A stretch of 64,000 nt of DNA. It comes from Nannocystis pusilla. GTDB taxonomy: Bacteria > Myxococcota_A > Polyangia > Nannocystales > Nannocystaceae. Positions 8,714 through 59,503 of this stretch are shown one piece after another. Position 1 is the stretch's first letter. Every line of letters starts with the position of its first letter. The stretch is taken from positions 285,990 to 349,989 of the forward strand of contig NZ_JAIRAU010000047.1 in the NCBI RefSeq assembly GCF_020073745.1, in the 5' to 3' direction. Below the pieces are notes generated by a model that saw only the letters and a list, made by a program, of their open reading frames with translations, searched no databases and was not told the origin of the DNA. Position numbers and translations under genes: made by a program.

Positions 8714-9785
<1,072 letters not shown>

Positions 9786-9787
<2 letters not shown>

Positions 9788-9868
9788 GCATGTCCTCGAG
9801 AGCCTGTCGATACGCGCGTGTCCGTCCGGGCATGTCCCCGCGAACAGGCTCCTTCGCACATGTCCTCT
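9786..9868. repeat. six-unit phased palindromic array (14-bp period: ...gagCATGtcc / agCCTGtcg / gcgCGTGtcc / gggCATGtcc / gaaCAGGctc / gcaCATGtcc)
   Basis: CATG/CCTG/CGTG/CAGG cores fall at 9789, 9803, 9817, 9831, 9845 and 9859, exactly 14 bp apart. The array spans the malK stop and the MalE-F start. Confidence 0.85.
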
Positions 9869-12027
9869 GCCTCATCTTCGCCCTGCTCGCCGCCCTCGCC
9901 CCCGCCCGCGCGCGGGCCGACGACCTGCGGCTGTGGCACGCCTACCGCGACGCCGAGGCCGCCGCCCTGGTCGAGGTCGTCGAGCGCTTCAGCGCGGCCA
10001 CCGGCCACCGCGTCGAGCTGCTGGCCGTCGCCCACGAGAGCTTCGCCAGCAAGCTGGTGGCGACCATCCCGCGCGGCCAGGGGCCCGACGTCTTCATCGA
10101 CTCGCACGAGCGCCTCGGCGACTACCGCCAGCGCGCCCTCGTCGGCCCGGCGACCGCGGCGCTCGACGACCCCGCCGTCTACTCCGCGCAGTCGCTGGCC
10201 GCGGTCACCCGGGACGGCGTCGTCTGGGGCGTGCCGCTGAGCGCCAAGTCGGTCGCCCTGTTCGTCAACACCGGTCTCGTCGGACATGTCCCGAAGACCC
10301 TGGAGGAGATCGCCGCGCTGTCGCTGCCCGCCGGCGTCTACCCGCTCGCCTACGAGGCCCAGAGCGCCTACGGTCACATGCCGCTGCTTGCGGCCTTCGG
10401 CGGGCGCATGCTCGCCGAGGACGCCTCCTTCGGGTTCGTCGGACCGGCCGCCGAGCGCTCGCTGGCGTTCGCGCGCGAGCTCGCCGAGCGCGGCGCCGTC
10501 CCGCGCGACGCCGACGGTGCGCTGGTCGCCGACCTGTTCCGCAGCGGTCGGGCCGCGTTCGCGATCAGCGGTCCGTGGCTGGTCGGCGACCTCGCGCAGG
10601 TCCGCTTCGCCTGGCGCGTCATCCCGCTGCCCGTCGTCGCCGAGACCGGCCTGCCGATGCGCCCGCCGCTGACCGTCGAGGCCGCCATGCTGTCGCCGCA
10701 GGGCGCCGCCAAGCCGGCCGCGCTGGCCCTGGCCCGCGCTCTCGGCGGCGCCGACGCGGCCGAGCTGCGCCAGCGCCAGGCCGGCACCCTGTCCGTGAGG
10801 ACAGACGTACCTGTCCCCGAGGACAACCCCGTCCTCGCCGGCTTCCGCGCCCAGGCCGAGCTCGCCGAGCCGATGTCGGCCGACCCGGCGATGCGCTCGA
10901 CCTGGGAGCCGGCCTTCCGCGCGATCCGCAAGGTCCTGCGCGGCCAGGCCGACCCCGCCGAGGCCCTCGCCGAGGCCGCGCACCGCTTCGCCGACGTGCG
11001 CCGCCCCCCGCCGGCCGCCGCCTCGCCGACCCCCGCGCTGTTGCTGCTCGGCCTCGGCCTCCTGCTCGTCGCGTTCCACCTCGTCCGCCGCGCCCGCGAC
11101 CCCGACGCGCGCCAGGCATTGCGCCGCTCGCTGCCCGCCTACCGCTATGTCGCCCACAGCGTCGTCGTCGTCGGCCTGCTGGTGTTCGTCCCGCTGATCG
11201 TCGGCGCCGCCACCTCGCTGTTCGCCGGCCGCCCCGGCGAGGGCTACTACGTCGGCCTCGCCAACTTCGTCGAGATCCTCACCGCCCGCGGCGGCCCCCT
11301 GCTCGCCACCGGCTCGTTCTGGTTCGTCCTCCTCGTCACCTTCCTGTGGACGGCCGTCAACGTCGTCCTCCACCTCGGCATCGGCCTCGCGCTCGGCCTC
11401 GTGCTGTCGCGCCCGACCCTGCGCCTGCGCGCGCTCTACCGCGTGCTGCTGATCATCCCCTGGGCCGTCCCCAGCTACGTCACCGCCCTGGCGTGGAAGG
11501 GCATGTTCCACCAGCAGTACGGCGCCGTCACCGGCCTGATCCACGCCGTCAACGACCTGTTCGGCACCAGCGTCGAGCCGATCGCCTGGTTCTCGCGCTT
11601 CGCCACCGCCTTCGCCGCCAACGTCGCCACCAACGTGTGGCTCGGCTTCCCCTTCATGATGGTCGTCACCCTCGGCGCGCTCACGGCCGTGCCCGCCGAC
11701 GTGCTCGAGGCCGCCGAGGTCGACGGCGCCTCGCGCTGGCAACGCCTCACCCGCGTCACCCTGCCGATGATCCGCCCCGCCCTCGCCCCGGCCGTCACCC
11801 TCGGCGCGATCTGGACCTTCAACATGTTCAACGTCGTGTTCCTCGTCTCGGGCGGCGACCCCGACGGCGCGACCGACATCCTCGTCAGCGAGGCCTACCG
11901 CTGGGCCTTCACCCGCGAGGCCCAGTACGGCTACGCCGCCGCCTACGCCGTCCTGATCTTCCTGCTCCTGCTCGTCACCACCCGCCTGCCGGCCTGGCTG
12001 GCCCGCCGCTCGGAGGCCGCGCGATGA
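9832..12027 (+). CDS. fused maltose/maltodextrin-binding protein (MalE-like) and ABC permease (MalF-like)
   Basis: Single stop-free frame. Signal peptide 'MSPRTGSFAHVLCLIFALLAALAPARARA'. The MalE-like solute-binding domain is followed, without a stop, by a permease with the EAA-type motif 'EAAEVDGASRWQRLTRVTLPMIRPAL'. An alternative start at ATG 9784 overlaps the malK stop. The N-terminus is encoded by a 6-unit palindromic array. Confidence 0.7.
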   Translation: MSPRTGSFAHVLCLIFALLAALAPARARADDLRLWHAYRDAEAAALVEVVERFSAATGHRVELLAVAHESFASKLVATIPRGQGPDVFIDSHERLGDYRQRALVGPATAALDDPAVYSAQSLAAVTRDGVVWGVPLSAKSVALFVNTGLVGHVPKTLEEIAALSLPAGVYPLAYEAQSAYGHMPLLAAFGGRMLAEDASFGFVGPAAERSLAFARELAERGAVPRDADGALVADLFRSGRAAFAISGPWLVGDLAQVRFAWRVIPLPVVAETGLPMRPPLTVEAAMLSPQGAAKPAALALARALGGADAAELRQRQAGTLSVRTDVPVPEDNPVLAGFRAQAELAEPMSADPAMRSTWEPAFRAIRKVLRGQADPAEALAEAAHRFADVRRPPPAAASPTPALLLLGLGLLLVAFHLVRRARDPDARQALRRSLPAYRYVAHSVVVVGLLVFVPLIVGAATSLFAGRPGEGYYVGLANFVEILTARGGPLLATGSFWFVLLVTFLWTAVNVVLHLGIGLALGLVLSRPTLRLRALYRVLLIIPWAVPSYVTALAWKGMFHQQYGAVTGLIHAVNDLFGTSVEPIAWFSRFATAFAANVATNVWLGFPFMMVVTLGALTAVPADVLEAAEVDGASRWQRLTRVTLPMIRPALAPAVTLGAIWTFNMFNVVFLVSGGDPDGATDILVSEAYRWAFTREAQYGYAAAYAVLIFLLLLVTTRLPAWLARRSEAAR

Positions 12028-12074
12028 CCCACCGCCGACGCCCGTCTCGTCGCCCCCCGCCGACGCGTCCCTTC

Positions 12075-17944: not shown

Positions 17945-18290
17945 GGACATGCTCTCCAAAACATGTCCTCCAAAACATTATCGTAAGGACATGTCCTCGA
18001 CGGCCTCCTGCTCGCCCCTCCTTCGGCGCCCAGCGCTGCGCCGCCGGGCCCCCACTGCGCGGAGCGCCGCCTCGCTCGCCGCGCCGGGAAGGACTGGTCC
18101 TGCGCACCGACGCCGGCCGTTTGATGTCCACCATCCTCGTCATTCCCCGCCCGGCTCGAGCCACGCTCTCGCCGCTCGTGACGCCCCGCGACGACCTGTC
18201 CCGCCCGGACAGAGCGCCGCTCGCGTCGCTCTCGTGACCCCCGCGGCGCACCTGCTCCCCCGGGTTCGAGTCCCGCTCGCGTCGCCCGTC

Positions 18291-18806: not shown

Positions 18807-18926
18807 AGATCGCGGTCACGCGCCTGCGGCCCTGAATATTCCCCGGGAACCTCGCCGGGGCGGCGCTGTCTGCCGCTCCCGAGCGACGCGCGTGCGGCCG
18901 GTGGCGGCCGACCTGTCCGTCGCGAC

Positions 18927-19487
18927 ATGTCCATTTCGCCAGCTGACTCATCGCTGCCATCGGAGGACCCCGCCGTGCCCACCCGCAAGCCGCCCGAGGA
19001 AGAGACCGTCCAAGCCGACCTCCTGCCCGTCATGAACATCATGTTCTTGCTGATCCCCGCCTTGCTGCTGGCGATGGAGTTCGCCAGCATGGCCCAGATC
19101 TCGGTCGCCGTCCCGCGCACCGTCAGCGACGTGACCGCGCGGCCGAAGGATCCCGGCCAGCCCGAGCTCGGCTTCAAGGTGGCGATCGGCCGCGACGGCT
19201 TCCGCACCCGCTCCGGCGGCGCCGACGCCGGCCCGGGCACGATCCCCCTGAGCGGCGGCGCCTACGACTACGCCGCCCTCGCCGCCGCCGCCCGCGACCT
19301 CAAGCAGCTGTTCCCCACCGAGTCGACCGTCACAATCACCGCCGAGGGCGACGTGCCGATGGACGTCCTCGTCCGCACCATCGACGTCCTCCGCGGCGAC
19401 AGCTGCAAGCTCGGCGGCTGGGCCCGCGGCGAGCAGCCCGGCGACGGCTGCCTGTTCTGGACGCCGGTGATCGAGAGCGTCGGCTGA
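18927..19487 (+). CDS. ExbD/TolR-like biopolymer transport protein (tentative)
   Basis: 186 aa. Single N-terminal TM 'LLPVMNIMFLLIPALLLAM', similar to the ExbD signature, followed by a periplasmic domain. The start ATG lies inside a GACATGTCC palindromic unit. Confidence 0.4.
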   Translation: MSISPADSSLPSEDPAVPTRKPPEEETVQADLLPVMNIMFLLIPALLLAMEFASMAQISVAVPRTVSDVTARPKDPGQPELGFKVAIGRDGFRTRSGGADAGPGTIPLSGGAYDYAALAAAARDLKQLFPTESTVTITAEGDVPMDVLVRTIDVLRGDSCKLGGWARGEQPGDGCLFWTPVIESVG

Positions 19488-19858
19488 GCCCGCGGCTTCG
19501 AGCATCGCCCCCCGCGCCGTTGCCCGGGTGCTTTGGACATGTCTCACAAGACATGTCCATGAGAACATCTCATTGCCGGCCCAAGGTCCGCGCGGCCGCG
19601 TGCCCCGCAGGTCGCCTCACCTTGACGAGCAGTCTCCTGACGCCTCCGGGCCGCTGCAAGGCCGCCCACGCCGCCAGGTCGGGGGGCCCCGCAACGGGCG
19701 CAGCTTCACGCGACCTCACGCGTGCGCGAAGCGCGGCTCGCCCTTCCGCCCAGGCGCGAGGCGACGCTCGCGCTCGCGCGGCGAGCGGCGGCATTCGCCG
19801 CGACGCTGAATGAGGATCGCCGGCGCGCGTTCTCGCGCCCCGCGCGCGCTCGCGCGCC

Positions 19859-20292: not shown

Positions 20293-22821
20293 ATGATCGG
20301 ATCCCCGGAGCCTGGCGTGCGCAGCGGCTCGCGCCGAACCTCGCAAGCCGGGCCGCGGGCCGGCTGCTCGTGCGAGCTGCTGCTCTCGCTGTGCGCCGCC
20401 GACTCGGTCCAGGGCGTCCTGGCCGCCCACGGCCTCGACGTCGCCCGCCTGCGCGCCGTCGTCGACGAGCTCCACGCCGAGGTCGAGACCGAGCCGGCCG
20501 ACTGGCGCCTGCGGATCACCCAGCGCGGCGGTCGCGCCGCCGACCCCGACCTCGACCTCCTGCTCGCCCTCGTCCGCTCCGCCGACTCGCACGCCTACCA
20601 GCTGCTCGAGCGGGCCGGCGCCGCCTGCGGCGCCCTGCGCAAGCTGCTGATCGACCGCCTGCGCGCGCTCGAGGCCGCCGCGCTCACCGGGACAGGTCCC
20701 TCGCGCCATGTCCCATCCGGCATGTCCTCCGAGACAGCCCTGCCGCGGCGCCCCGTCGTCCAGCGCATGTCGACCATCGGCGCCGCCGGCGAGCGCCCGG
20801 TCCGCCGCTCGCTCGCCGACGCGCGCGCGAGTGACATGTCCCCGCGGACAGGTGCCGGCGACGCCCCGCCCCGCCCCGCCCGCGGCGGCGGCGCCCGCAC
20901 CTGGCCCGAAGGCCAGCCTGCCGCGCGCCCGGCCCGACCGACCGACGTCCGCACCTGGCCCGAAGACCACCCGGCCCGCGCCCGCCTCGACGCCCCCCGC
21001 GCCCGGCCCGAAGACCCGCGCGCGCCGACCCGCGCCCAGCCGCGCCTGCCCGCCCGCCCCGAGCCGGGCCGCGCCTCGGCCCTGGCCCTCAAGCCAGGTC
21101 CAGGCGCCCAGGTCGCGCCGGCCGGCGAGCCCGAGCCGCGCCCGGCCCCCGCGCCCCAGCCCGAGGCCCGCAGCCAGCGCCTGAGCCCGATCGACCCCTC
21201 GGCCCTGCCGCCGCTGCACGGCCGCGAGGGCGAGCTGGCGCGCCTCGCCGACGCCGTCCTGCGCCGCTCGCCGCGCCCGCCGCTGCTCGTCGGCCCGGCC
21301 GGCAGCGGCCGCACGCTGGTCGCCAAGCACCTCGCCGGCCTGCTGCACCAGCCGGTCTTCTACCTGTCCGCGACCCGCTACGAGGACGAGGACGGCCTGC
21401 GCGCCGACCTCGCCGCCGTCGCCAAGCAGGGCGGCGTCGCCATCCTCGACGACCTCGACCGCCTCGGCGGCGACGGCCCGCCGGCGCTGCTCGGCGCCCT
21501 CGCCAAGGCCTGGTCTTCGGGACAGCCGCCGATCGTCGCCGTCGCCTCGCCCGAGGGTCAGGCCCGCCTGTGCGCCTGGGCCCCCGGCCTGGCCGCCGCC
21601 CTCGACCTCGTCACCCTCCAGCCGCTCGAGGGCGACGACCTGCGCGCCGCCGTGGCCGCCGCCGCGCCCGCGGTGCTGGCCCAGCACGGCCTGTCTCTCG
21701 GGTCAGGTAGTCGCCTCGCCGAGCTCGTGCGCCTGTCCGACCGCTTCCTCGCCGGCCTGGCCCAGCCCGGCCGCAGCCTCGACCTGCTCGACCTCGCCTG
21801 CGCCCGCACCGCCCGCGAGGGCCGCGGCGCCGTCCAGCGCGACACCTGGATCGACATCGTCTGCGAGCGCAGCGGCGTCCCGCGCGAGCGCCTCGAGGGC
21901 CAGGGCCACCAGGACATGCTCGAGCTCGAGGCCGAGCTCGCGCGCAAGGTCGTCGGCCACGAGCACGCCCTCGCCGCCGTCGCCCAGCTGATCCGCAGGA
22001 ACCGGGCCGGCTTCGGCTCGCAGCGCCCGATCGCCACCGTCCTCCTGCTCGGGCCCAGCGGCGTCGGCAAGACCGAGATCGCCAAGGCCCTGTGCGGCGC
22101 CCTGTTCGACCGCCCCGACGCGTTCGTCCGCCTCGACATGAGCGAGTACGCCGAGGCCCACGCGGTCGCGCGGATCGTCGGCGCCCCGCCCGGCTACGTC
22201 GGCCACGAGCAGGGCGGCGCGCTGACCGACCCGCTGCTCAAGCAGCCGCACTGCGTCGTCCTCCTCGACGAGATCGAGAAGGCCCACCGCGACGTCCACC
22301 AGCTGCTGCTGCAGGTGTTCGACGAGGGCCGGCTCACCGACGGCCGCGGCCGCACCATCGACTTCCGCCACGCCGCGATCATCATGACCTCGAACCTCGG
22401 CGCCACCTGCCTCGACGCCACCGGCGACGCCCGCCTCGACGAGGCCCGCGTGCTCGAGGCCGCCCGCGCCGCCTTCCCGGTCGAGCTGTGGAACCGCATC
22501 GAGGCCCCGCTGGTGCTCCACCCGCTCGGCGGCGAGCAGCTGGCCCGGATCTGCGCCCGCCTGGTCCGCGCCTCCTCCGACCGCCTGCTGCGCGAGCGCG
22601 GCATCCGCTACCGCCTCACCGAGGCCGCCACCCGCCACGTCGTCTCGCTGTGCGGAAAGGACATGTCCCTTGGGGCACGTCCCTTGCGACATGTCCTTAC
22701 GCGCAGCGTCGAGGCCCTCCTGGCCGACGCGATCCTGCGCGGCCAGATCCGCGCCGGCATGCAGGTCGAGGTCGATCTCGACCACACCGGCGCGCTGTGC
22801 CTGCTGGCCTCGCGCGCCTAG
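20293..22821 (+). CDS. ClpA/ClpB-family AAA+ ATPase with degenerate first nucleotide-binding domain
   Basis: 842 aa. Clp_N-like N-terminus. D1 P-loop is 'GPAGSGRT' (Lys to Arg). D2 is canonical: 'GPSGVGKTE' and 'VVLLDEIEKAH'. A sensor-2 region 'GARPL' is present. A roughly 150-aa Pro/Arg/Ala low-complexity insert lies between the domains. Confidence 0.8.
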   Translation: MIGSPEPGVRSGSRRTSQAGPRAGCSCELLLSLCAADSVQGVLAAHGLDVARLRAVVDELHAEVETEPADWRLRITQRGGRAADPDLDLLLALVRSADSHAYQLLERAGAACGALRKLLIDRLRALEAAALTGTGPSRHVPSGMSSETALPRRPVVQRMSTIGAAGERPVRRSLADARASDMSPRTGAGDAPPRPARGGGARTWPEGQPAARPARPTDVRTWPEDHPARARLDAPRARPEDPRAPTRAQPRLPARPEPGRASALALKPGPGAQVAPAGEPEPRPAPAPQPEARSQRLSPIDPSALPPLHGREGELARLADAVLRRSPRPPLLVGPAGSGRTLVAKHLAGLLHQPVFYLSATRYEDEDGLRADLAAVAKQGGVAILDDLDRLGGDGPPALLGALAKAWSSGQPPIVAVASPEGQARLCAWAPGLAAALDLVTLQPLEGDDLRAAVAAAAPAVLAQHGLSLGSGSRLAELVRLSDRFLAGLAQPGRSLDLLDLACARTAREGRGAVQRDTWIDIVCERSGVPRERLEGQGHQDMLELEAELARKVVGHEHALAAVAQLIRRNRAGFGSQRPIATVLLLGPSGVGKTEIAKALCGALFDRPDAFVRLDMSEYAEAHAVARIVGAPPGYVGHEQGGALTDPLLKQPHCVVLLDEIEKAHRDVHQLLLQVFDEGRLTDGRGRTIDFRHAAIIMTSNLGATCLDATGDARLDEARVLEAARAAFPVELWNRIEAPLVLHPLGGEQLARICARLVRASSDRLLRERGIRYRLTEAATRHVVSLCGKDMSLGARPLRHVLTRSVEALLADAILRGQIRAGMQVEVDLDHTGALCLLASRA

Positions 22822-22855
22822 TCGATCGCTGCGCCGCGTGGTACCGTGCGGCGCG

Positions 22856-23233
22856 GTGGCGTCCGCCCTCATCATCGACGCCGACGCCCGGCTGACGATC
22901 CGCCTGGCGACGATCCTCGCCGCCCGCTCGCTGCCGGCCGCGGTGCTCGTCGATCCCGGCGAGGCCGTCGCGTGGGTGCGGGCCCACGCGCCCGCGCTCG
23001 TGCTGCTGCGCGTCGAGCTGCCGGGCACCTCCGGCTTCGCGGTGTGCAACCGCCTGCGACGCGACGACGACACCCGGGCGATCCCGCTCATCCTGTACGG
23101 CTCCGAGGTCCCACCCGAAGTCTTCGACGGCCACAGCAAGCTGCGCACCCGCGCCACCGCCTACTTGCACGCGCCCTTCGACCCCGCCCGCGTCCACGCC
23201 GCCGTCGCCGCGTGCCTCTCCGTGAGCGCGTGA
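22856..23233 (+). CDS. stand-alone pseudo-receiver (REC-like) domain protein
   Basis: About 125 aa from GTG 22856. REC fold ('ALIIDAD...') but the phospho-acceptor position is 'LVLLRVELPG', with Arg in place of Asp. Paralogous to the N-terminus of the next gene. Confidence 0.55.
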   Translation: MASALIIDADARLTIRLATILAARSLPAAVLVDPGEAVAWVRAHAPALVLLRVELPGTSGFAVCNRLRRDDDTRAIPLILYGSEVPPEVFDGHSKLRTRATAYLHAPFDPARVHAAVAACLSVSA

Positions 23234-23390
23234 AGCCGGCGCGTGTCTCGCGGTGACCGCGCGACGATCGTCGTCGCAAGAGCCTCGTCGCAGGCGGCGG
23301 CGCCGGCCCGTCGAACGTCGTTATGCGGGCCGCCAAGGACCGGCCCGTCGCCCCTGGTGGAAGCGAGCAAGGCCGGATATTTTGGCCCAC

Positions 23391-26946: not shown

Positions 26947-27821
26947 TGTCCGCCCCCGAGCTCGACCTCGGCCTCGCCGCCCTCCTCGGCGCCCTCCAGG
27001 GCGTGGCCGAGTTCCTGCCGATCTCCTCGTCCGGCCACCTCGCCCTGGCCCAGCGCGTCGCCGGCCTCGACGCCGGCGCCGGCGGCCACTCGTTCAACAT
27101 CGTCGTCCACGCCGGCACCCTGCTGGCCGTCCTGTTCCACTACCGCGGCGACCTGCTCGCGCTGGCCCGCGCCGTCTTGCGTCCGGGACATGTCCCCCAG
27201 CACATGCCCGATGCGCCAGGCTCGGAAGGACATGTCCCCTCGGGCAGCTCACCGAGCGACGCGCGAGCGCTGCTGCTCGCGCTCGTCCTCGGCACCTTGC
27301 CGCTGGCCGCCGCCCTCGCCCCGCCGGTCGAGAACCTCGTCATCGCCGCCGAGCACCACCCCCGGGCCATCGGCGCCTGCTTCCTCGTCACCGCGGCGAT
27401 GCTCGGCCTGGCCGAGTGGCTGACCCGCCGGCGCCGGAGCCCGCAGGAGGTCCCGCGGCCGCTGCAGGCGCTGCTCATCGGCCTCGCGCAGCTCGTCGCC
27501 ATCCTGCCCGGCATCTCGCGCAGCGGCTCGACGATCGCCGCCGCCATGGGCCTCGGCCTCGGCCGCCTGCCGGCCGCGCGCTTCTCGTTCCTGCTGGCGA
27601 TCCCCGCCATCCTCGGCGCCGCGCTCAAGGAGGCGCTCGACCTGATGAAGGAGGGCCTGCCCGCCGTCGACCCGCTCGCCTTCGTCGTCGGCTTCTTCGT
27701 CAGCTTCGTCGTCGGCGTCGCCACCCTGCGCGTGCTGCTGGTCCTGCTGGTCCGCGTCGGCGTGGTGCCCTTCGTGCCCTACCTCGTCGTCCTCGGCCTC
27801 GCCGTCCTCGCCCTCGGCTAG
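26946..27821 (+). CDS. uppP: undecaprenyl-diphosphate phosphatase UppP/BacA
   Basis: 291 aa. Conserved 'EFLPISSSGH' and 'PGISRSGSTI' motifs and 8 TM segments. The loop at 27181-27245 is encoded by palindromic units. Confidence 0.85.
   Translation: MSAPELDLGLAALLGALQGVAEFLPISSSGHLALAQRVAGLDAGAGGHSFNIVVHAGTLLAVLFHYRGDLLALARAVLRPGHVPQHMPDAPGSEGHVPSGSSPSDARALLLALVLGTLPLAAALAPPVENLVIAAEHHPRAIGACFLVTAAMLGLAEWLTRRRRSPQEVPRPLQALLIGLAQLVAILPGISRSGSTIAAAMGLGLGRLPAARFSFLLAIPAILGAALKEALDLMKEGLPAVDPLAFVVGFFVSFVVGVATLRVLLVLLVRVGVVPFVPYLVVLGLAVLALG
27185..27240. repeat. three palindromic units (GGGACATGTCCC, CACATGCCCG, GGACATGTCCC; core spacing 14 and 28 bp) inside the uppP coding sequence
   Basis: Direct reading. 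The units encode loop peptide 'RPGHVPQHMPDAPGSEGHVPSG'. Confidence 0.85.
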
Positions 27822-28196
27822 GAGCCTGTCCGGGAAATCGCGGGGCCGGAGGCGCGGGGCCGTGGAGTTCTGGGTGACGGCGGGCACGGAGCGGCGGAGC
27901 GGGTCCCTCGCTTCGGCGGGGCCCTCCCAGGCAACGTGCTCGGCGCCCTCGGGCTTCGATATCGATCTGTCGTTGAGGACAGGTTCGTACGTGCCTCACG
28001 GACGATGGCGCCTGCGCGCGGTTGCCTGCGGCCCCTCCCGCCGGCGTCCCACTCCGCCGCTCCGTGCCCGCCTGCGAAGAGCGTCGCCGGCCCCGCTTGT
28101 CGCCGCGCGGGAGCCTCACGGAGCGGCGGCGAGTGCGGCGCGTCCGGCTTCGTTTCTACCTGTCCTAAAGAACAGGACCGATCCACCATAACCTTG

Positions 28197-28236
28197 TAGA
28201 CATGCCCATCACGACATGCCCGTACGAGCATGCCCT
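28197..28236. repeat. three direct GACATGCCC units at 14-bp spacing, preceded by GTCCT-N7-AGGAC inverted repeat (28160-28178)
   Basis: 'tagacatgcccatcacgacatgcccgtacgagcatgccct', in the convergent uppP/queA intergenic region. Confidence 0.8.
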
Positions 28237-28245
28237 ACCGACGGC

Positions 28246-36156: not shown

Positions 36157-37788
36157 TCAACTTCGCAGCACGCGCAGCGCTCGCTCGAGGTCCGACATCA
36201 CCGTGTCGTCGGCCGGATTTCGCTGCCCCGGAGGGAGTTCACCCTCGCGTCGGATCACGTACGACGGATGATACGTGACGTGAAGTGGGATCTGCAGGCC
36301 TGCACCCGGGTCGTCGTAGGTCCAACGACGGTTGCGCATCTGTGCCAACTTCAGATCCTGATCGGTGCCGGTCAGCAACATCCCCGCGTGCCGGCCGAGC
36401 GCCACGATCACCGCGGGACGGATCGCCCGGATCTGGGCGCGCAGGAACGGCGAGCACTTCTCGATCTCGTCGGCGGCCGGTTCGCGGTTGCCGGGCGGCC
36501 GGCACTTCAGCACGTTGGCGATGTAGACCTGCTCGCGCTTCATGCCCAGGCGCTCGATCCACTGCGTCAGCCGCCGGCCGGCAGCGCCGACGAACGGCTC
36601 GCCGCGCCGATCTTCGTCCGCGCCGGGCGCCTCGCCGATGAACATCACCCGCGCGTCGGGGTCGCCGACGCCGAATACAATGTTCGTGCGGGTCTTCGAG
36701 AGCTTGCAGCGGGTGCAGTCGCCGACGTTACGGGCCCGCAAGTACTCGAGCTTCTGCGCCGGCGTCCACGCCTGAGCCTGCGCGCGTAGCGAGGCATCGC
36801 CGGCCGGGCGCGGCGCGCCCTCGGCCGCACGCGGCGGTGCCCCCTGATCCGCCAGCGGCAGGCTGACCGTCCGGGGCCGCGGCGACGGCTCCGCGGGCTG
36901 CTGGTGGACCGTGCGAGCGCGCGGCGGCTCCGCGGGCGCGCGCGAACGCGGTGCATCTTGCGGCGGCGGCTCCCAGTCTGCAGGGCCCCGCTGCGTGCGC
37001 CCTCGCGTCGTCTCCTGCGGCGACGACTCGCGGTCTGCATGGCCCCGCTGCGCGCGCCCTCGCGTCGTCTCCTGCGACGACGCCTCCCGGTCTGCAGGGC
37101 CCGGCTGCGCGCGCCCTCGCGTCGGCTCGTGCGGCGACGGCTCCCGGTGTGCAGGGCCGGGCTGCGCGCGCCCGCGTGTCGTCTCCTGCTGCGACGACTC
37201 CCAGTCTCCGGAGCCCGACTGCGCGCGCCCGCGTGTCGTCTCCTGCGGCGGCCACGGCTCCCAGTCTCCGGGGTCCGGCTGCGCGCGCTCTCGCGTCGTC
37301 TCCTGCGGCGACGGCTCCCAGTCATCCGGGCCCGGCTGCGCTCGACCGCGTGGCGTCTCTTGCGGCAGCGACGGCTCCCAGTCCTCGGGGCCCGGCTGCG
37401 CGCGCCCTCGCGTCGTCTCCTGCGACGGCTCCCAGTCCGCCGGGCCCGGCTGCGCGCGCCCTCGCTTCGTCTCCTGCGGCGGCGGCCCCGAGGCCGCGCC
37501 CGGCTGTGTGCGCGCTCGCGGCTCGGGATCGCGGGCGGATCTGGCCTGGTCTTCGGGCCATGTCGGCGCGCGCGCCCCCGCGGCGGTGCGCTCGGTCGCC
37601 TGTCCGGACGGCCAGGTGCTGTCCGGCGCCGGCGATCGCTCCTCGGGCGCGGAGATCGGCGCGCTCGCGCGACGCGGAGAGGCCGCGGCGGACACGTACG
37701 CCAGACCGCGGAACTCCCGGAGGTGACGCAGGTGGGCGGCGAACTGAACCGCCAGCCGCCGGGTCGCGTCGCGTCGATCGCCTTCCAC
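36157..37788 (-). CDS. family-4 uracil-DNA glycosylase with N-terminal tandem-repeat extension
   Basis: The C-terminal 200 aa carry UDG-4 motifs: '[20 protein letters not shown]', '[13 protein letters not shown]', 'HPSYVIR', and a 4Fe-4S Cys cluster 'CTRCKL'. The N-terminal 330 aa form an in-frame Pro/Arg-rich repeat tract. The start codon is uncertain. Confidence 0.65.
36960..37500. repeat. about 9 tandem copies of a roughly 57-60 bp repeat (19-20 aa unit '[19 protein letters not shown]') inside the UDG N-terminal extension
   Basis: Direct reading: 'ggctcccagtc[tc]...gggcccggctgcgcgcgccctcgcgtcgtctcctgcg' recurs head-to-tail. The peptide repeat is visible in the ORF translation. Confidence 0.8.
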
Positions 37789-37802
37789 CGCGAGATCCTC
37801 CG

Positions 37803-39108
37803 TCAGTTCGTCGCCGCCAGCGCGTCGAGCAGCCAGGCCGCCAGCGCCGCCTTGGCGATCGGCGGGCCCGACGCGCGCACGGCGATCGCGTCGCCGTCGC
37901 GCGCCAGCAACAGGCCGGCGTTGGTCGCCGACGCGAAGCCGACCCCGGGCGCGCCGACGCGGTTGACGAAGATCGCGTCGGCGCCCTTGGCCCGCAGCTT
38001 GGCCGAGCCGAGCCGGATCAGCTCCTGCTGCAACCTGTCCTCGGGGCCATCCTCGACCGTCTGCGCGGCGAACCCGAGGAAGCGCGAGCGCGGGGCGCCC
38101 GGCGCCGCGCCGCGGCCGAAGCGGACCGTGAGCGCGGCGAGGATGTCGGGCGCGGCCCGCCAGGCGAGCGTCGGCAGCGTCGCCAGCAGCTCGGCCTTCT
38201 CGAGCTTGCGCGCGGCGCCGCCGTCGATCTCGAGGTCTTGCACCGCCGCGACCATGGCCACCCAGTCACATGGCCCTTGAGACAGCTCGTTCTCCAGCGC
38301 CGCCTGCATCTCGGCCGCGGTCTCGACGTCGACGCGGCGCACCCCCGCCGGCGTGGCCAGCTCGACCGGTCCGGCCACCAGCGTCACCGCGGCGCCGGCG
38401 CGCTGGGCCGCCTCGGCCAGCGCGAAGCCCATCGCCCCGGTCGACGCGTTGGTGACGAAGCGGACCGGATCGATGTACGTGCGCGTCGGCCCGGCCGACA
38501 CCAGCACGCGCTTGCCCGCCCACGGCCCGCGGCCGACGCCGAGCCGCGCCAGCGCGGCGGCGACGATCAGCGGCGGGTCGATCATGCGGCCCTCGCCGAT
38601 CCACCCGCACGCCAGCTGCCCGCGATCGGGCCCGACGAACTCGGCCCCGCGGGCGCGCAGTGTCGCCAGGTTGTCCTGCGTGGCCGGGTGGCGCCACATG
38701 TTCGTGTTCATCGCCGGCGCCCACAGCACCGGCGCGCGCGTGGCCAGCAGCACCGTCGCGGCGAGGTCGTTCGCCAGGCCGTGGGTCGCGCGCGCCAGCA
38801 GGTCGGCGGTGGCCGGCGCGACGACCACCAGGTCGGGCCAGTCGGCGAGCTCGATGTGGCCGACGTGGCCCTCCTCCTCCGGGTCGAGCAGGCGCGTGCG
38901 CACCGGCCGGGTCGACACCGTCGCCAGCGACAGCGCGCTGACGAACGCCTCCGCCGCCGGCGTCATCACCACCTGGACCTCGCAACCGGCGGCGACGAAC
39001 GCCCGCACCAATTCCGGCGCCTTGTAGGCCGCGATCCCGCCGCTGACGATCAGCAGGACGCGACGGCCCCGCGGACGTGTCCCATGGGACATGTCCGTGG
39101 CACCAGCC

Positions 39109-39116: not shown

Positions 39117-40270
<1,154 letters not shown>

Positions 40271-40273
40271 TCT

Positions 40274-41029
40274 TTAGCTGTTCTTGGAGACAGGTGCTTC
40301 GGGACAGGGCGCTTCGGACCTGTCCCCGGAGTCAGCATTCACGTCGGCCGCGGCGGCGTAGCCGGCCGCGGCGTCGAGGTAGCCGGCGCGGACCAGGGCC
40401 TCGCGCGTGACCGCGGGCGCGGCGGCCCGGCCGGCCTCGGCCCCGGCGCCGAGCAGGCGGGCGACGTAGCGCGCCAGCAGGTCGACCTCGAGGTTGAGCG
40501 CGTCGCCCACCTTCAGGTCGGCCAGGGTCGTGGCCGCGAGCGTGTGCGGGATCAGGCCCACGGCGAACCCACGCGGGTCGACCGCGTTGACCGTGAGGCT
40601 GACGCCGTCGACGCACACGCTGCCCTTGACCGCGATGTAGCGGGCCAGCTCGCCCGGGACGTCGAACCACATCTCGACCGCGTCGCCGCGGGCGACCCGG
40701 CTGCGCACGCGCGCCAGGCCGTCGACATGGCCGGACACGAGGTGGCCGCCGAGCGCGTCGCCGAGCCGTAGCGCCGGCTCGAGGTTGACGCGGCTGCCGG
40801 GCCGCAGCTCGCCGAGGGTGGTGACCGCGAGCGTCTCGAACGCGGCTTCGACGGTGAAGTCGCCGGCGGTCGAGGCGACCACGGTGAGACACACGCCGGA
40901 GATCGCCACGCTGGCGCCGAGGCTGCGATCGCCCTCCGACAGCGCGTAGCGGATCACGAAGGTGCGTCGCTGCGCGCCAGGGATCACGCGCTCGACCGTG
41001 CCGACGCCGCGCACGAGGCCGGTGAACAT
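40274..41029 (-). CDS. ribE: riboflavin synthase alpha subunit with atypical C-terminal tail
   Basis: 251 aa. 'MFTGLVRGVGTV' start and two lumazine-binding repeats. The last 45 aa ('...ADSGDRSEAPCPEAPVSKNS') are encoded by palindromic repeat units. Confidence 0.8.
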   Translation of the reverse strand: MFTGLVRGVGTVERVIPGAQRRTFVIRYALSEGDRSLGASVAISGVCLTVVASTAGDFTVEAAFETLAVTTLGELRPGSRVNLEPALRLGDALGGHLVSGHVDGLARVRSRVARGDAVEMWFDVPGELARYIAVKGSVCVDGVSLTVNAVDPRGFAVGLIPHTLAATTLADLKVGDALNLEVDLLARYVARLLGAGAEAGRAAAPAVTREALVRAGYLDAAAGYAAAADVNADSGDRSEAPCPEAPVSKNS

Positions 41030-42325: not shown

Positions 42326-42939
42326 TTCACCTCGCTCTCCGGCGACGCTGCCGGCGCGGACCTGTCCCCAGAGTCAGCCTCGTCCTCGCCCTCGGCGAAG
42401 GCCGGCAGCCGGGTCGGCGCGCTGAGCTGGATCTGCCCGCGGGCGTCGATCTCGAACAGCGTGCGCTGGCCCTCGGGGCTGGTGTGCGCGGCCTTCTCCA
42501 TCTCGTTCAACAGGTGCACGAACTCGTCGACCGCCTGGTACTCGCCGTGGATGGCGACGTAGCGCACGTAGGCGACGGCGTCGAGCGGGCGCAGCAACCG
42601 GAGGATCCGGTCGGCGATCTCCTCGGCGCGGATCTCCTTCTCGCCGCGCGTCGCGGCCCACAGCTCGACCACGCCGAGCAGCGCCTCGATCTGCTCGTCA
42701 TCGACGGGGCGCTTGCGGCAGACCGCCTGCAGCGAGGCGCGGATCTTGTTGCGATCGAACAGCTGCTTGCCTCCGCCGCGCCCCAGCACGATCGGCGGCG
42801 TGGTCTCGATGCGCTCGTAGGTGGTGAAGCGGTGGTTGCAGTCGAGGCACGCACGTCGCCGCCGGATCGCACCGCCGTCCCGACTCTCCCTCGAGTCGAG
42901 GACCTTGATGCTCCCGCTGCGGCAGACCGGGCAGAGCAA
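42322..42939 (-). CDS. nrdR: transcriptional repressor NrdR with extended C-terminal tail
   Basis: 205 aa. Zinc ribbon 'MLCPVCRSGSIKVLDSR...CLDCNHRF' and an ATP-cone. The final 40 aa ('...EDEADSGDRSAPAASPESEVN') include the same 22-bp element found in the ribE tail. Confidence 0.8.
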   Translation of the reverse strand: MLCPVCRSGSIKVLDSRESRDGGAIRRRRACLDCNHRFTTYERIETTPPIVLGRGGGKQLFDRNKIRASLQAVCRKRPVDDEQIEALLGVVELWAATRGEKEIRAEEIADRILRLLRPLDAVAYVRYVAIHGEYQAVDEFVHLLNEMEKAAHTSPEGQRTLFEIDARGQIQLSAPTRLPAFAEGEDEADSGDRSAPAASPESEVN

Positions 42940-53405: not shown

Positions 53406-55142
<1,737 letters not shown>

Positions 55143-55340
55143 GGTCCTCGGGTCTAAGATTCGCGGGCCGCCCACGCACGCATGGGCGAACCAGCGGAGT
55201 CGACGTAGCGTTTCGGATCGCGAGCGATCGATCAAGCGTGCAAGTCCGCGACGCGCGTCGTCGTGCCAACGAATTTCACCCGCGAAAACACCGACGCGGG
55301 CCGCCCCGGCCGGAGCGACCCGCGCGTCATGCCACATCAC

Positions 55341-57086
55341 TCACATCGGCTGGATGCCGCAATCGTCGACCTCGTTCGGAATGCAACCCTCGCAATCCCA
55401 CCGGAAGTTGTCGAGCAGCGCGACCGTGGTCAGGTATTGATCGGACATGTCGGCCAAGAAGAAGCCGATCGTGATCTCGGCACCCGGCTGCACACCGCCC
55501 TTGGCGGTGAACCAGTCGGTGCAGGCGTGCTGCTCGAAGCCCGTGCCCTGCAGCTGCGGCTCGGCGAAGGTGTAGCCGGGGCCGTCGTAGTACGGGTCGA
55601 GCGCCGTGATCGTCAGCGGCAGGCCGCTGGCCGGATTGTTCGGGTCGGGGATGAAGGTGACGTTGCCGCTGTACGGGTCGACCGGGGGCATCGCGTTCGG
55701 GTTGTCGGGCGTCGGATCGACCTGATAGGCGATCAGCAGGTCGTTGTACGAAGAACCGACCCACGTCGGCCACTCCGCCGAGCAGAACACGAAGTCGAAG
55801 GTGTAGCCGAACGTGCCCGCCGGCACCTTCGTATTGAAGGTGAAGTAGATGCGGTCGTTGGCGTTGCCGTTGGTCATCGCCCACTGGGCCTGGAGCGTGT
55901 CCGAGCAGTCGCGGTCGCCGTTCGGCACGCCGTTGTCGCAGTTCTTGAAGGGCGTGCCGCCGGCGCCGTTGTTGCTGCCGTTCTGGTTGTTGAACGGCGC
56001 CGGCAGGACGCCGCCGTCGGGGTTGAAGTTGTCGTCGTGCGTCTGCGAATTCGCCGGCTCGACGACGACGCCCTGGCCGTTCGGCGGGGTGATCGTGCCC
56101 GTCGACAGCATCAGGAAGGCCGCGCCCTCGCGCGGGCTGTAGAGCAGCTGCGGCGGCGTATTCGCGTCCATGTCGTGGTCGTAGGTGTACGTGCCGAAGC
56201 CCTTCGCCACCTGCCACGAATTGTCGACCGCCTGCGAGAACTGGAAGTTGCTCGTCATGATCGAGTCGGCCGGGGTGCTGTTGCAGATGCCGATCGCCTT
56301 GAGCGCGTTGTTCTTGTCGGCCTTGTTGCTGATCACGTCGGGCGCGTCGTCGCACACGACATAGTTGGCCGGGGCCTGACAGCTGGCCGGGAAGTAGGTG
56401 GTGCAATTGTTGAGGCAGAAGTCGCCGGGGCCGCCGTCGACCGTGTTGCCGTCGTCGCACTCCTCGCCGGCCTCCTTGATGCCGTTGCCGCAATCGGCCG
56501 GCGAGAACGTGCAGTCGGGCTCGCAGCCGTCGCCGGGGACCACGTTGCCGTCGTCACACTGCTCGGGGCGCTCGACCGTGCCGTTGCCGCAGTCCTGCAG
56601 CGGCGTGGCCGTCTGGCAGTCGGCGCTGCACTCGTCGCCGTCCTCGGTGTTGCCGTCGTCACACGCCTCGCCGGCCTCGACGTTGTTGTTGCCGCAAACG
56701 GCCGTGATCGTGCACGTCGGCTCACAGCCGTCGCCCGCGACGTCGTTGCCGTCGTCGCACTCCTCGCTGCCCTCCTGAACGCCGTTCCCGCAGTCCGGCA
56801 CGCCCTCCGTCACGCCCTCCGTCTCGGCCGCCGTGGCCGTCCCCTCCGTCGTGCCCTGCGTGGCGCTGTCGCTCACGCCCGTGGTCGGCGTGCCCGTCGT
56901 CGGCTGCGAGGTCTCGGTCGCCGAGTCGCCGCCCGCGGTCGCGTCGACCGTGGCTTGTGAGGCGGTGTCGCCCTCGGTCTGACCGTCGGACGCGCTCGAA
57001 AGTTTGCCGCCGTCGTCGCCGCACGCGGCGAGCGCCGAGGCGAGAAAGCCGGCCGTAAGGATTCGAAAAGTCGGTCGAGTCATCAT
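55341..57086 (-). CDS. myxobacterial Cys-rich repeat lipoprotein, paralog 2
   Basis: About 581 aa from ATG 57086 (MMTRPTFRILTAGFLASALAACG). Same architecture as paralog 1. Confidence 0.7.
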   Translation of the reverse strand: MMTRPTFRILTAGFLASALAACGDDGGKLSSASDGQTEGDTASQATVDATAGGDSATETSQPTTGTPTTGVSDSATQGTTEGTATAAETEGVTEGVPDCGNGVQEGSEECDDGNDVAGDGCEPTCTITAVCGNNNVEAGEACDDGNTEDGDECSADCQTATPLQDCGNGTVERPEQCDDGNVVPGDGCEPDCTFSPADCGNGIKEAGEECDDGNTVDGGPGDFCLNNCTTYFPASCQAPANYVVCDDAPDVISNKADKNNALKAIGICNSTPADSIMTSNFQFSQAVDNSWQVAKGFGTYTYDHDMDANTPPQLLYSPREGAAFLMLSTGTITPPNGQGVVVEPANSQTHDDNFNPDGGVLPAPFNNQNGSNNGAGGTPFKNCDNGVPNGDRDCSDTLQAQWAMTNGNANDRIYFTFNTKVPAGTFGYTFDFVFCSAEWPTWVGSSYNDLLIAYQVDPTPDNPNAMPPVDPYSGNVTFIPDPNNPASGLPLTITALDPYYDGPGYTFAEPQLQGTGFEQHACTDWFTAKGGVQPGAEITIGFFLADMSDQYLTTVALLDNFRWDCEGCIPNEVDDCGIQPM

Positions 57087-59187: not shown

Positions 59188-59503
59188 GGCGAAGGTATCC
59201 TTGAACGTGGTGGCGCGCCCTTCCAGGACGGGCACGCCGCTGCCGCAGCGGCGCGCGCGCGGAATGACGTGAATCAACCGGGCCACGATTTCGGACTTCG
59301 CCGCAGGATCAAGCGTCCACCGACCTGGTGCCTTCAAACCATGCCTGACGACGATCGTGGCAAATCTGCGCCCGCAGAGGCGCTGCCGCCGCGCGCCGCT
59401 CGTTCGCTACTCCAGCGACCGCGAACCTTCGATCCGGACAACAGAGGCGCAGACTCCGCCGCAGCTGCAGAGACTGCCATGAATCAACTTCATCGCCTGT
59501 CCT

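Follow-up and report, generated by a model that had tools for sequence, protein, structure and literature searches.

A 14-bp-phased palindrome array across the GARPL codons of a Clp gene in Nannocystis

The Clp gene and the triple over its GARPL codons

The stretch of DNA considered here, 64,000 nucleotides from Nannocystis pusilla (contig NZ_JAIRAU010000047.1) and called the window throughout, comes from a probably much larger genome; the contig that represents Nannocystis pusilla Na p29 (L001) in our comparisons is 11.9 Mb long. Within the window, a gene for an AAA+ protein of the Clp/Hsp100 family carries three short palindromic units in succession, set exactly 14 bp apart and lying across the codons for its GARPL motif. 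This triple, about 160-200 nt upstream of the start of a response-regulator gene, is the subject of the analysis. The DNA around it (18.3-26.7 kb of the window) is 88-94% identical to that of N. pusilla L001. Features of the window are collected in Table 1.

The protein encoded by the Clp gene begins with an N-terminal region and a linker rich in proline, alanine and arginine (P/A/R-rich), continues through a weak first ATPase module, and ends with a second ATPase module and a D2-small domain. The second ATPase module of Clp/Hsp100 proteins is recognized by an AAA_2 domain followed by a D2-small domain with GARPL, and this is the arrangement found: Pfam places AAA_2 at residues 578-737 (5e-53) and ClpB_D2-small at residues 745-827 (8e-13). 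The best solved relatives of the protein are ClpB and ClpC. In E. coli ClpB (YDPVYGARPLKRAIQ), its GARPL has an aligned counterpart, also GARPL, within the second ATPase module, and GAR(P)(L/M) is present in most of 120 listed homologues. We take GARPL to be the sensor-2 (arginine) motif of Clp/Hsp100 proteins. The reading frame of the gene is kept with respect to that of N. pusilla L001, the two proteins sharing 92% amino acid identity over 840 aligned codons.

The cores of the triple occupy positions 22659-22668, 22673-22682 and 22687-22696, and the spacers that follow them read CTTG, CTTG and TTAC. The whole lies in frame within the open reading frame (ORF) 20293-22821, where the codons GAC ATG TCC CTT GGG GCA CGT CCC TTG CGA CAT GTC CTT specify the peptide DMSLGARPLRHVL. 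Both letters and frame are as the original prediction gave them, and the positions that it assigned to the cores (22662, 22676 and 22690) are those of the C in the central CATG, CACG and CATG of the respective units, again spaced by exactly 14 bp. The units score 18.3, 9.9 and 19.7 bits, all in phase. Tandem Repeats Finder (TRF) reports a period of 14 and 2.6 copies for the triple, and a repeat search places its units in one group (family D2) with those of two arrays in the linker of the same gene.

Those two linker arrays had also been seen from the sequence, and both are real, the one at 20690-20731 having three units and the one at 20832-20859 having two. All told, the Clp gene of the window holds three clear arrays and two weak ones. 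The three-unit linker array has 25 of 30 core matches where 19.8 are expected; it is kept with a few changes in N. pusilla L001, and its counterpart in the metagenomic relative L031 is a set of repeated linker modules. The two-unit array is missing at the orthologous place in N. pusilla L001, which has a two-unit linker array of its own some 250 nt away, across a set of 54-nt repeats. These repeats (20892-21016 in the window, ~2530-2700 in L001) encode a P/A/R-rich peptide repeat (RTWPE...), and their copy number is unlike in the two genes, with the reading frame intact in both.

Codon choice over GARPL and across the window

A palindrome over a conserved peptide could, of course, be an accident of chance codon choice around that peptide. 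We therefore held the peptide KDMSLGARPLRHVL fixed and drew its codons from local (window) usage. The peptide alone yields 20.5 of 30 core matches by expectation, a point in favor of an accident. The triple has 27, which is the maximum attainable (P = 3.6e-9, or about 2e-4 once we correct for the window's ~54,600 coding positions). Core mismatches are limited to two, at the first base of the Ala codon and that of the Arg codon in GAR, and neither base can change without loss of the GAR motif. Given these values, and given that the site belongs to the strongly phased family described below, we attach almost no credence to chance and count it as already refuted.

The codons themselves tell the same story. 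CTT, used twice, has a share of 0.8% among its synonymous codons; GCA has 1.2%, CGA 1.9%, CGT 2.0%, TTG 3.5% and CAT 6.7%. None of the five GARPL codons is the usual choice here, GGG and CCC having shares of 15% and 28%. A or T is the last base in six of the 13 codons of the triple, in a gene with 94% G+C at its third codon positions, and the three Leu codons in the spacers are likewise rare and T-rich. The log10 P(codons|peptide) of the triple is -14.6, a value that only 0.07% of 11,699 stretches of 13 codons from confident genes equal or undercut; the stretches that score below it are overlapping windows of the same locus and one in a doubtful ORF. Among the 11,699, the triple ranks second for atypical codon use.

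Because the amino acids at GARPL are fixed by catalysis, the deviation in codon usage there measures pressure on the nucleotides. The site is a clear case of a nucleotide-level code that overrides synonymous codon choice over a catalytic motif. Every synonymous position within a core carries the motif base in the Nannocystis lineage. The suggestion that strong pressure creates the motif even at conserved codons has stood up well, the match having reached its ceiling through codons with usages of 0.8-7%. The other intragenic arrays of the window are at the maximum that their peptides allow, or at most two positions below it. Such intragenic arrays account for several of the window's most codon-atypical stretches, and the stretch starting at 21691, within the weak pair at 21687-21742, is codon-atypical as well.

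The family to which the triple belongs was defined by at least two units with cores near GGACATGTCC, an exact 14-bp spacing and a variable 4-nt spacer, all of which the triple has. Allowing at most one mismatch, GGACATGTCC occurs 27 times in 64 kb where 1.7 occurrences are expected, an excess of ~15-fold. A position weight matrix built iteratively from the units gives the symmetric core G-G-A-C-A-T-G-T-C-C followed by four poorly conserved positions, with the central C..G and the GGA/TCC flanks conserved best. The family unit can be written as a palindromic core, GGAC-(A/C)(T/G)-GTCC, with a 4-bp spacer enriched in A/T (46-51% A+T versus 28-29% in the background, inside genes too).

Phasing in this family is strict. 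Pairs of matrix hits number 34 at an offset of 14, 17 at 28 and 10 at 42, against 0-2 at any other offset, and the half-sites are arranged as GGACA-0-TGTCC 27 times and as TGTCC-4-GGACA 34 times, against a background of 0-3. In all, the 64-kb window holds ~43 arrays with at least two units, each of 2-6 units. The phase is held across degenerate units (for example, in the arrays at 17945 and 27186), the units being conserved and the spacers free. Since spacers vary within a single array while the cores are conserved, the arrays are not recent tandem duplications. The number of spacer sequences that arrays have in common is close to our chance estimate, and therefore does not point to copy families. 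The GARPL triple truly belongs to this window-wide family, and the observation with which the analysis began is confirmed.

In 630 kb of unrelated bacterial loci, 284 kb of them with more than 65% G+C, pairs at offset 14 showed no excess (2 pairs, versus 1.6 at other offsets). In 2.9 million viral contigs, two adjacent perfect units were found once only, and no phased family; the arrays are therefore not a phage feature. A search of the literature on the motif and on palindromic repeats of Nannocystis and other myxobacteria found nothing comparable. A family of phased palindrome arrays of this kind has apparently not been described so far.

Table 1. Positions of the GARPL triple, its host gene and other members of the phased family in the window
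Feature	Position	Strand	Detail
Three-unit 14-bp-phased array	22659-22700	no strand	GGACATGTCC-cttg / GGGCACGTCC-cttg / CGACATGTCC-ttac
GARPL codons GGG GCA CGT CCC TTG, second ATPase module	22672-22686	+	under the middle unit
Clp/Hsp100-family AAA+ gene	20293-22821	+	842 aa from first ATG; start by gene caller, 20317
Three-unit linker array (GGACAGGTCC / CGCCATGTCC / CGGCATGTCC)	20690-20731	no strand	encodes GTGPSRHVPSGMS
Two-unit linker array TGACATGTCC-ccgc-GGACAGGTGC	20832-20859	no strand	missing at orthologous place in N. pusilla L001
Weak two-unit array AGGCCTGGTC-ttcg-GGACAGCCGC	21506-21533	no strand	unit scores 6.5 and 5.2; low confidence
Weak phased pair CGGCCTGTCT-ctcg and GCGCCTGTCC, 42 bp apart	21687-21742	no strand	low confidence
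Response-regulator receiver gene downstream of Clp	22856-23233	+	Pfam Response_reg; gene call
Six-unit array, from stop codon to about the start of the next gene	9786-9869	no strand
Family member in convergent intergenic region	19535-19576	no strand	only block there conserved with N. pusilla L001
Five-unit array inside BacA/UppP gene	27186-27255	no strand	39 of 50 core matches versus 30.4 expected, P = 1.4e-8
Six-unit span between convergent genes	28156-28239	no strand	11 nt from stop codon

Orthologues and the origin of the array

How the triple came to lie over GARPL can be followed in 12 sequences, the window and 11 related loci. The orthologous peptide in the Nannocystaceae is D-x-x-L-GARPL-R-H-[VL]-L. 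In L118, L032, L034, L035, L033, L036, L038 and L037, phased units are missing at the site, and the codons are ordinary and GC-rich, as in GAC GCG ACC CTC GGC GCC CGC CCC CTG CGC CAC GTG CTC. These orthologues nevertheless match 14-18 of the 30 core positions, versus ~8 expected, by our estimate, from base composition, because D..LGARPLRH[VL]L spells a proto-array in all three reading phases. L030 and L031 match 23-24 of 30 and have units 1 and 3 (GAC CTG TCC ... TTG CGA CAT GTC C). The full array, at 27 of 30, is found in the window and in N. pusilla L001.

The site is collinear in all 12 sequences, which differ there by substitutions only; it lacks the length difference that a mobile insertion, whether a miniature inverted-repeat transposable element (MITE) or an in-frame repeat, would leave. 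Because the site has no insertions or deletions (indels), the array must have been built by point substitutions on a pre-adapted sequence. The residues replaced on the way were tolerant ones, with M taking the place of A or L, and S that of T or A.

The original prediction had offered two ideas, seeding of arrays from fortuitous native GTCC/GGAC sequence and a pressure that creates the motif. The partial match already present in array-free orthologues agrees with the first, and the sequence comparison supports the view that both hold and act together. That prediction had also allowed that its case would fail if the flanking residues were universally conserved regardless of repeat content. In part they are so conserved: R-H-[VL]-L and D-x-x-L are kept in repeat-free orthologues, and were therefore not created by the array. 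The K, M and S of the window are variable, however, and the codons differ throughout.

Phased arrays are present at the loci of N. pusilla L001, of L031 (85% amino acid identity in Clp) and of L036, a metagenome-assembled genome (MAG) of the Nannocystaceae (68%). L118 (80% identity) has none over 21 kb, L033 none over 22 kb and Enhygromyxa salina (L037) none over 12 kb; L038 has none either. Across the loci compared, then, the distribution is lineage-restricted and patchy, taking in Nannocystis and some other Nannocystaceae. On L118, a metagenomic contig, two frame changes (within 11000-11900) are required before the orthologous Clp gene can be read to its C-terminal end. Assembly indels are the probable cause, and would account for the missing D2-small domain of the called protein.

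Several sequences recur at places that are not orthologous. Of the six arrays at the L031 locus, four fall in its first ~550 nt, before or at the start of the gene as called, and the other two close to the gene's 3' end. At 414-620 the locus has tandem linker modules of ~96 nt that encode the peptide PGLRGGPLRHAPTDMSS. Modules 1 and 2 contain GTCCCTTGCGACATG, a 15-mer that is also present in the GARPL array, and module 3 has a version that differs in one base, GTCCCTTGCGCCATG, a hint that the linker and the gene's 3' end may have exchanged sequence. Further, an identical 19-mer, TGTCCCCGCGGACAGGTGC, representing a two-unit array with its spacer, lies at 20837-20855 in the window and at 2770-2788 in L001. 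These places are not orthologous in the two species' linkers, being on opposite sides of the 54-nt repeats. The repetition may stem from array conversion or transposition, or may be coincidental.

Observations of this type invite the view that the motif has no function at the site, and spreads by neutral or selfish drive wherever the protein tolerates it. Short-patch gene conversion, template switching in quasi-palindromes, and motif-biased DNA uptake with recombination, which has been proposed for uptake sequences, are candidates for such a drive. It would fit the 15-mer and the 19-mer just described, the patchy phyletic distribution, the rapid gain and loss of linker arrays at only ~10% divergence, and the location of arrays where harm would be least. 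However, the intermediates in L030 and L031 look stepwise, rather than like the product of one conversion tract, and spacers differ within and between arrays, with no more sharing than about the chance estimate. An array also persists as a conserved island in the otherwise unalignable spacer 19488-19858. A drive leaves the strict 14-bp phasing unexplained in the absence of a physical reader, and the A/T-ending codons persist in a gene with 94% G+C at third positions. We consider such a drive unlikely as the explanation of the site.

The same orthologues bear on a more conventional possibility, that the middle unit is a sigma-54 promoter (GGCACG-N4-TTGC) for the downstream response-regulator genes, with the flanking palindromes as activator sites. 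The -24/-12 consensus of sigma-54 has GG at -24 and GC at -12, as in TGGCACG-N4-TTGCW. The segment GGCACGtcccTTGC (22673-22686) matches it at 10 of 10 core positions, and lies ~170 nt upstream of the response-regulator start codon. Yet the full pattern with at most two mismatches has 2 hits in the window versus 8.2 expected, and the family consensus is not sigma-54-like. L031 has the downstream response-regulator gene without the GG/GC match; L030 matches at 9 of 10 positions, yet has a convergent channel gene downstream. A sigma-54 promoter is, in our judgment, very improbable. An operator for the downstream response regulator was also considered and dropped, since L030 keeps two of the units with a convergent chloride-channel gene, not a response regulator, in the downstream place, and since the family avoids divergent promoter regions.

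Placement of the arrays and a possible reader

Gene boundaries throughout come from our own crude codon-based gene caller, on which all figures for placement rest. With these boundaries, 59 units are coding and 52 non-coding, the density being 5-7 times higher in non-coding DNA. None of the 5 divergent spacers (869 nt) has an array. Of the convergent spacers, 3 of the 4 having any length do (1,077 nt), the fifth pair of genes overlapping. Of 36 tandem junctions, 14 have arrays. The majority of intergenic arrays are no more than ~50 nt away from a stop codon, and some extend from the stop as far as the start codon of the following gene. An array of four units in L036 begins 8 nt past the stop of the orthologous Clp gene. 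As for conservation between genomes, nothing in the convergent spacer 19488-19858 except its array can be aligned with N. pusilla L001, the array being a conserved island there; one linker array is species-specific, and the comparison at GARPL is without power.

Several further details of placement were seen. The ATG of a core coincides with likely start codons (ATG TCC, Met-Ser) at 18923-18932, 9856-9865 and 39087-39096, the first of these belonging to an ExbD-like ORF at 18927. Stop codons (TGA) abut units or lie within them at 9785, 17942 and 25167. A five-unit phased run at 40260-40350 extends over the final 14 codons and the stop codon of one gene and takes in the start codon of the gene that follows, and GGACCTGTCCCCNGAGTCAGC is repeated at 40316-40336 and 42358-42378, near the 3' ends of two minus-strand genes. 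The array in the BacA/UppP gene encodes GHVPQHMPDAPGSEGHVPSGSS, in a loop that has 14 extra residues relative to E. coli UppP; 14 residues are 42 nt, or three units, which is the sole array length that preserves the reading frame. One caveat for the gene map is the ORF of 731 aa called at 9832-12027, in which a solute-binding protein (SBP_bac_8) is joined to a permease (BPD_transp_1); this may be a real fusion or two genes in the same frame.

Two other features of the window were noted. A 57-nt tandem repeat of ~9.2 copies (83% matches) occupies 36959-37486, in an apparently non-coding gap of ~1 kb (36742-37802). At 53406-57086 are two adjacent minus-strand genes of ~580 aa, apparent paralogues that are nearly identical around GGACATGTCG (at 53508 and 55443).

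Intergenic arrays adjoin stop codons or lie between convergent genes or at operon junctions, and divergent spacers have none. Such placement recalls elements that act as folded structures. Here, neighboring units would pair (CATGTCC-N4-GGACATG) to make RNA hairpins or DNA cruciforms, and these would serve, like repetitive extragenic palindromes (REPs), as non-canonical terminators, 3'-end stabilizers or processing sites between genes. The Clp copy would then be such an element pushed into the coding region by a short intergenic space. That L030, with its convergent neighbor, has a spacer of only 4 nt, and that L036 has its array just past the stop codon, agrees with this. Further, the triple folds at -32.9 kcal/mol (z = -4.7), several other arrays reach z values of -2.5 to -4, and the exact 4-nt spacing would fit a tetraloop.

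If pairing were what is selected, however, would-be partners should change together, and they do not. No covariation was detected at the pairing positions (odds ratios 0.8 and 1.3; p = 1.0 and 0.78), and the loop-proximal positions of the stems are complementary in just 50-65% of unit pairs. Non-wobble mismatches dominate, with C.C and A.G the commonest non-pairs; on the sense strand, G.U occurs 25 times, not clearly more often than A.C (16). Variants that are not self-complementary occur in direct runs (CCTGTCC three times at 59493), and for the arrays at 12055, 30815 and 20685 folding is no better than that of shuffles. Genes contain about half of the units, and a hairpin 125 nt before a stop codon would, by our reasoning, be of little use as a terminator or as a protector of the 3' end. 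The T tract expected of an intrinsic terminator does not follow the array; no terminator-like site was found in 22400-23300, no sigma-70-like site near the array, nor any Rfam match in the window. The compensatory change and the essentially extragenic location that characterize the stem-loops of REPs and of bacterial interspersed mosaic elements (BIMEs) are both lacking. A folded structure seems to us an unlikely basis for the family.

A comparison with known repeats is instructive. Among known phenomena, HIP1 (GCGATCGC) comes closest; this highly iterated palindrome of cyanobacteria is over-represented many-fold, in and between ORFs (PMC5861425). In that account, conservation between genomes led to the inference of selection, rather than of neutral replenishment; no role in peptides, RNA or gene regulation had been found, a role in the structure of the chromosome or nucleoid was proposed, and the periodicity given is 10-90 kb, with no description of a tandem array (PMC5861425). 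Like HIP1, the Nannocystis core is over-represented (~15-fold), has about half of its units in genes, and bends codon choice. Unlike HIP1, it forms lattices of 2-6 units at a strict 14-bp step, with spacers that are enriched in A/T, and these lattices favor the 3' ends of genes.

Other systems share some of these traits. The uptake signal sequences (USS) of Pasteurellaceae and the DNA uptake sequences (DUS) of Neisseria occur about once per kb, are lineage-specific, constrain codons and peptides where they lie in genes, and form inverted pairs downstream of genes; they may accumulate by drive rather than by local function. Palindromic cores in a fixed 14-bp phase, as in Nannocystis, are not known from them. 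REP/BIME elements are imperfect palindromes of ~20-40 nt, essentially extragenic, tied to the RAYT transposase and bound by gyrase and integration host factor (IHF). The Nannocystis arrays are, like these, high in copy number, palindromic, and found after stop codons and between convergent genes. Unlike these, they consist of 10-bp cores on a 14-bp lattice, are about half intragenic, and have no stem covariation, and the copy at GARPL arose by point substitution. Among ~24 proteins of the 64-kb window that were scanned, there was no transposase (RAYT being of the IS200/IS605 Y1 type).

A different analogy comes from plasmids. The repeats of parC/ParR and of tubC/TubR, and the heptads of the omega repressor, are read by dimers that form a helical array on the DNA. 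The arrays of Nannocystis resemble such iteron-like or centromere-like tracks in having short units, a fixed step and a phase kept across weak units, and this analogy is the one behind the explanation that we prefer. They differ in that the plasmid tracks are single plasmid or promoter loci, whereas ~43 arrays lie in 64 kb here, coding sequence included. PadR-type operators, ATGT-N8-ACAT, are single promoter sites. The lattice TGTCC-N4-GGACA contains ATGT-N8-ACAT, a resemblance that we offer as a lead only, the positions conserved best in Nannocystis being, unlike those of PadR operators, the central C..G and the GGA/TCC flanks.

A fixed step, a phase held across degenerate units and free spacers are what a cooperative repeat track would be expected to have, and the arrays have all three. 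Their units behave as independent matches to a consensus that are held in register, as a cooperative protein that binds double-stranded DNA would produce. The explanation to which we give an even chance is therefore that the arrays are phased tracks, written stepwise, for a dimeric DNA-binding protein with a 14-bp step. The pressure seen in the codons would come from a sequence-specific dimer that reads double-stranded DNA, binds each palindromic core, and cooperates or polymerizes with this fixed step. By our arithmetic, 14 bp would be ~1.33 helical turns, and three units (42 bp) four turns. Tracks would be laid mainly at the 3' ends of genes and at junctions between them, and be tolerated or selected inside genes where the protein sequence allows. 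Binding might create a chromosome-structuring mark, a barrier to transcription, or a barrier to supercoiling at gene ends.

Several points weigh against a track of this kind. Both the protein and its binding are putative, being drawn from the DNA sequence. The placement at 3' ends and junctions, and the strong predicted hairpin of the triple, would also suit an RNA element. That placement rests, in turn, on crude gene boundaries and on small counts of the intergenic classes. The P values of the other intragenic arrays (1e-3 to 4e-9) carry ascertainment bias. The complete (100%) identity with N. pusilla L001 over the triple is uninformative about constraint, because synonymous differences amount to only 8-10% per codon and longer identical runs are found elsewhere in the gene. 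The distribution is uneven, L036 (68%) having arrays but L118 (80%), L033 and L037 having none, and turnover of arrays in the unconstrained linker is rapid; both patterns could come from a process that is selfish or mutational.

With a dimeric reader taken as the working explanation, a more specific proposal can be made, although only tentatively. Nannocystis and some other Nannocystaceae may have an undescribed, abundant DNA-binding protein that assembles with a 14-bp step on GGAC-NN-GTCC tracks, which would mark 3' ends and operon junctions, perhaps as roadblocks or supercoiling barriers, and would be selected enough to overwrite the synonymous sites of essential motifs. Were this true, the GARPL site would clearly exemplify a catalytic motif on which a second code has been imposed.

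Whatever the basis of these arrays, they form rare-codon clusters and strong palindromes within genes, and could be misread as signs of horizontal transfer, as frameshifts or as promoters. The GARPL site serves as a natural experiment on nucleotide-level pressure, one in which that pressure attained the maximum match, and its orthologues offer a series in which a functional DNA element would have been built stepwise on pre-adapted coding sequence without insertion. Hyper-abundant motifs that bend codon choice are known, of course, in HIP1 and the uptake sequences, and their functions are still debated. Nannocystis adds to these a lattice with a strict step of 14 bp, a property that speaks for an oligomeric, physical reader and thereby makes the question directly testable.

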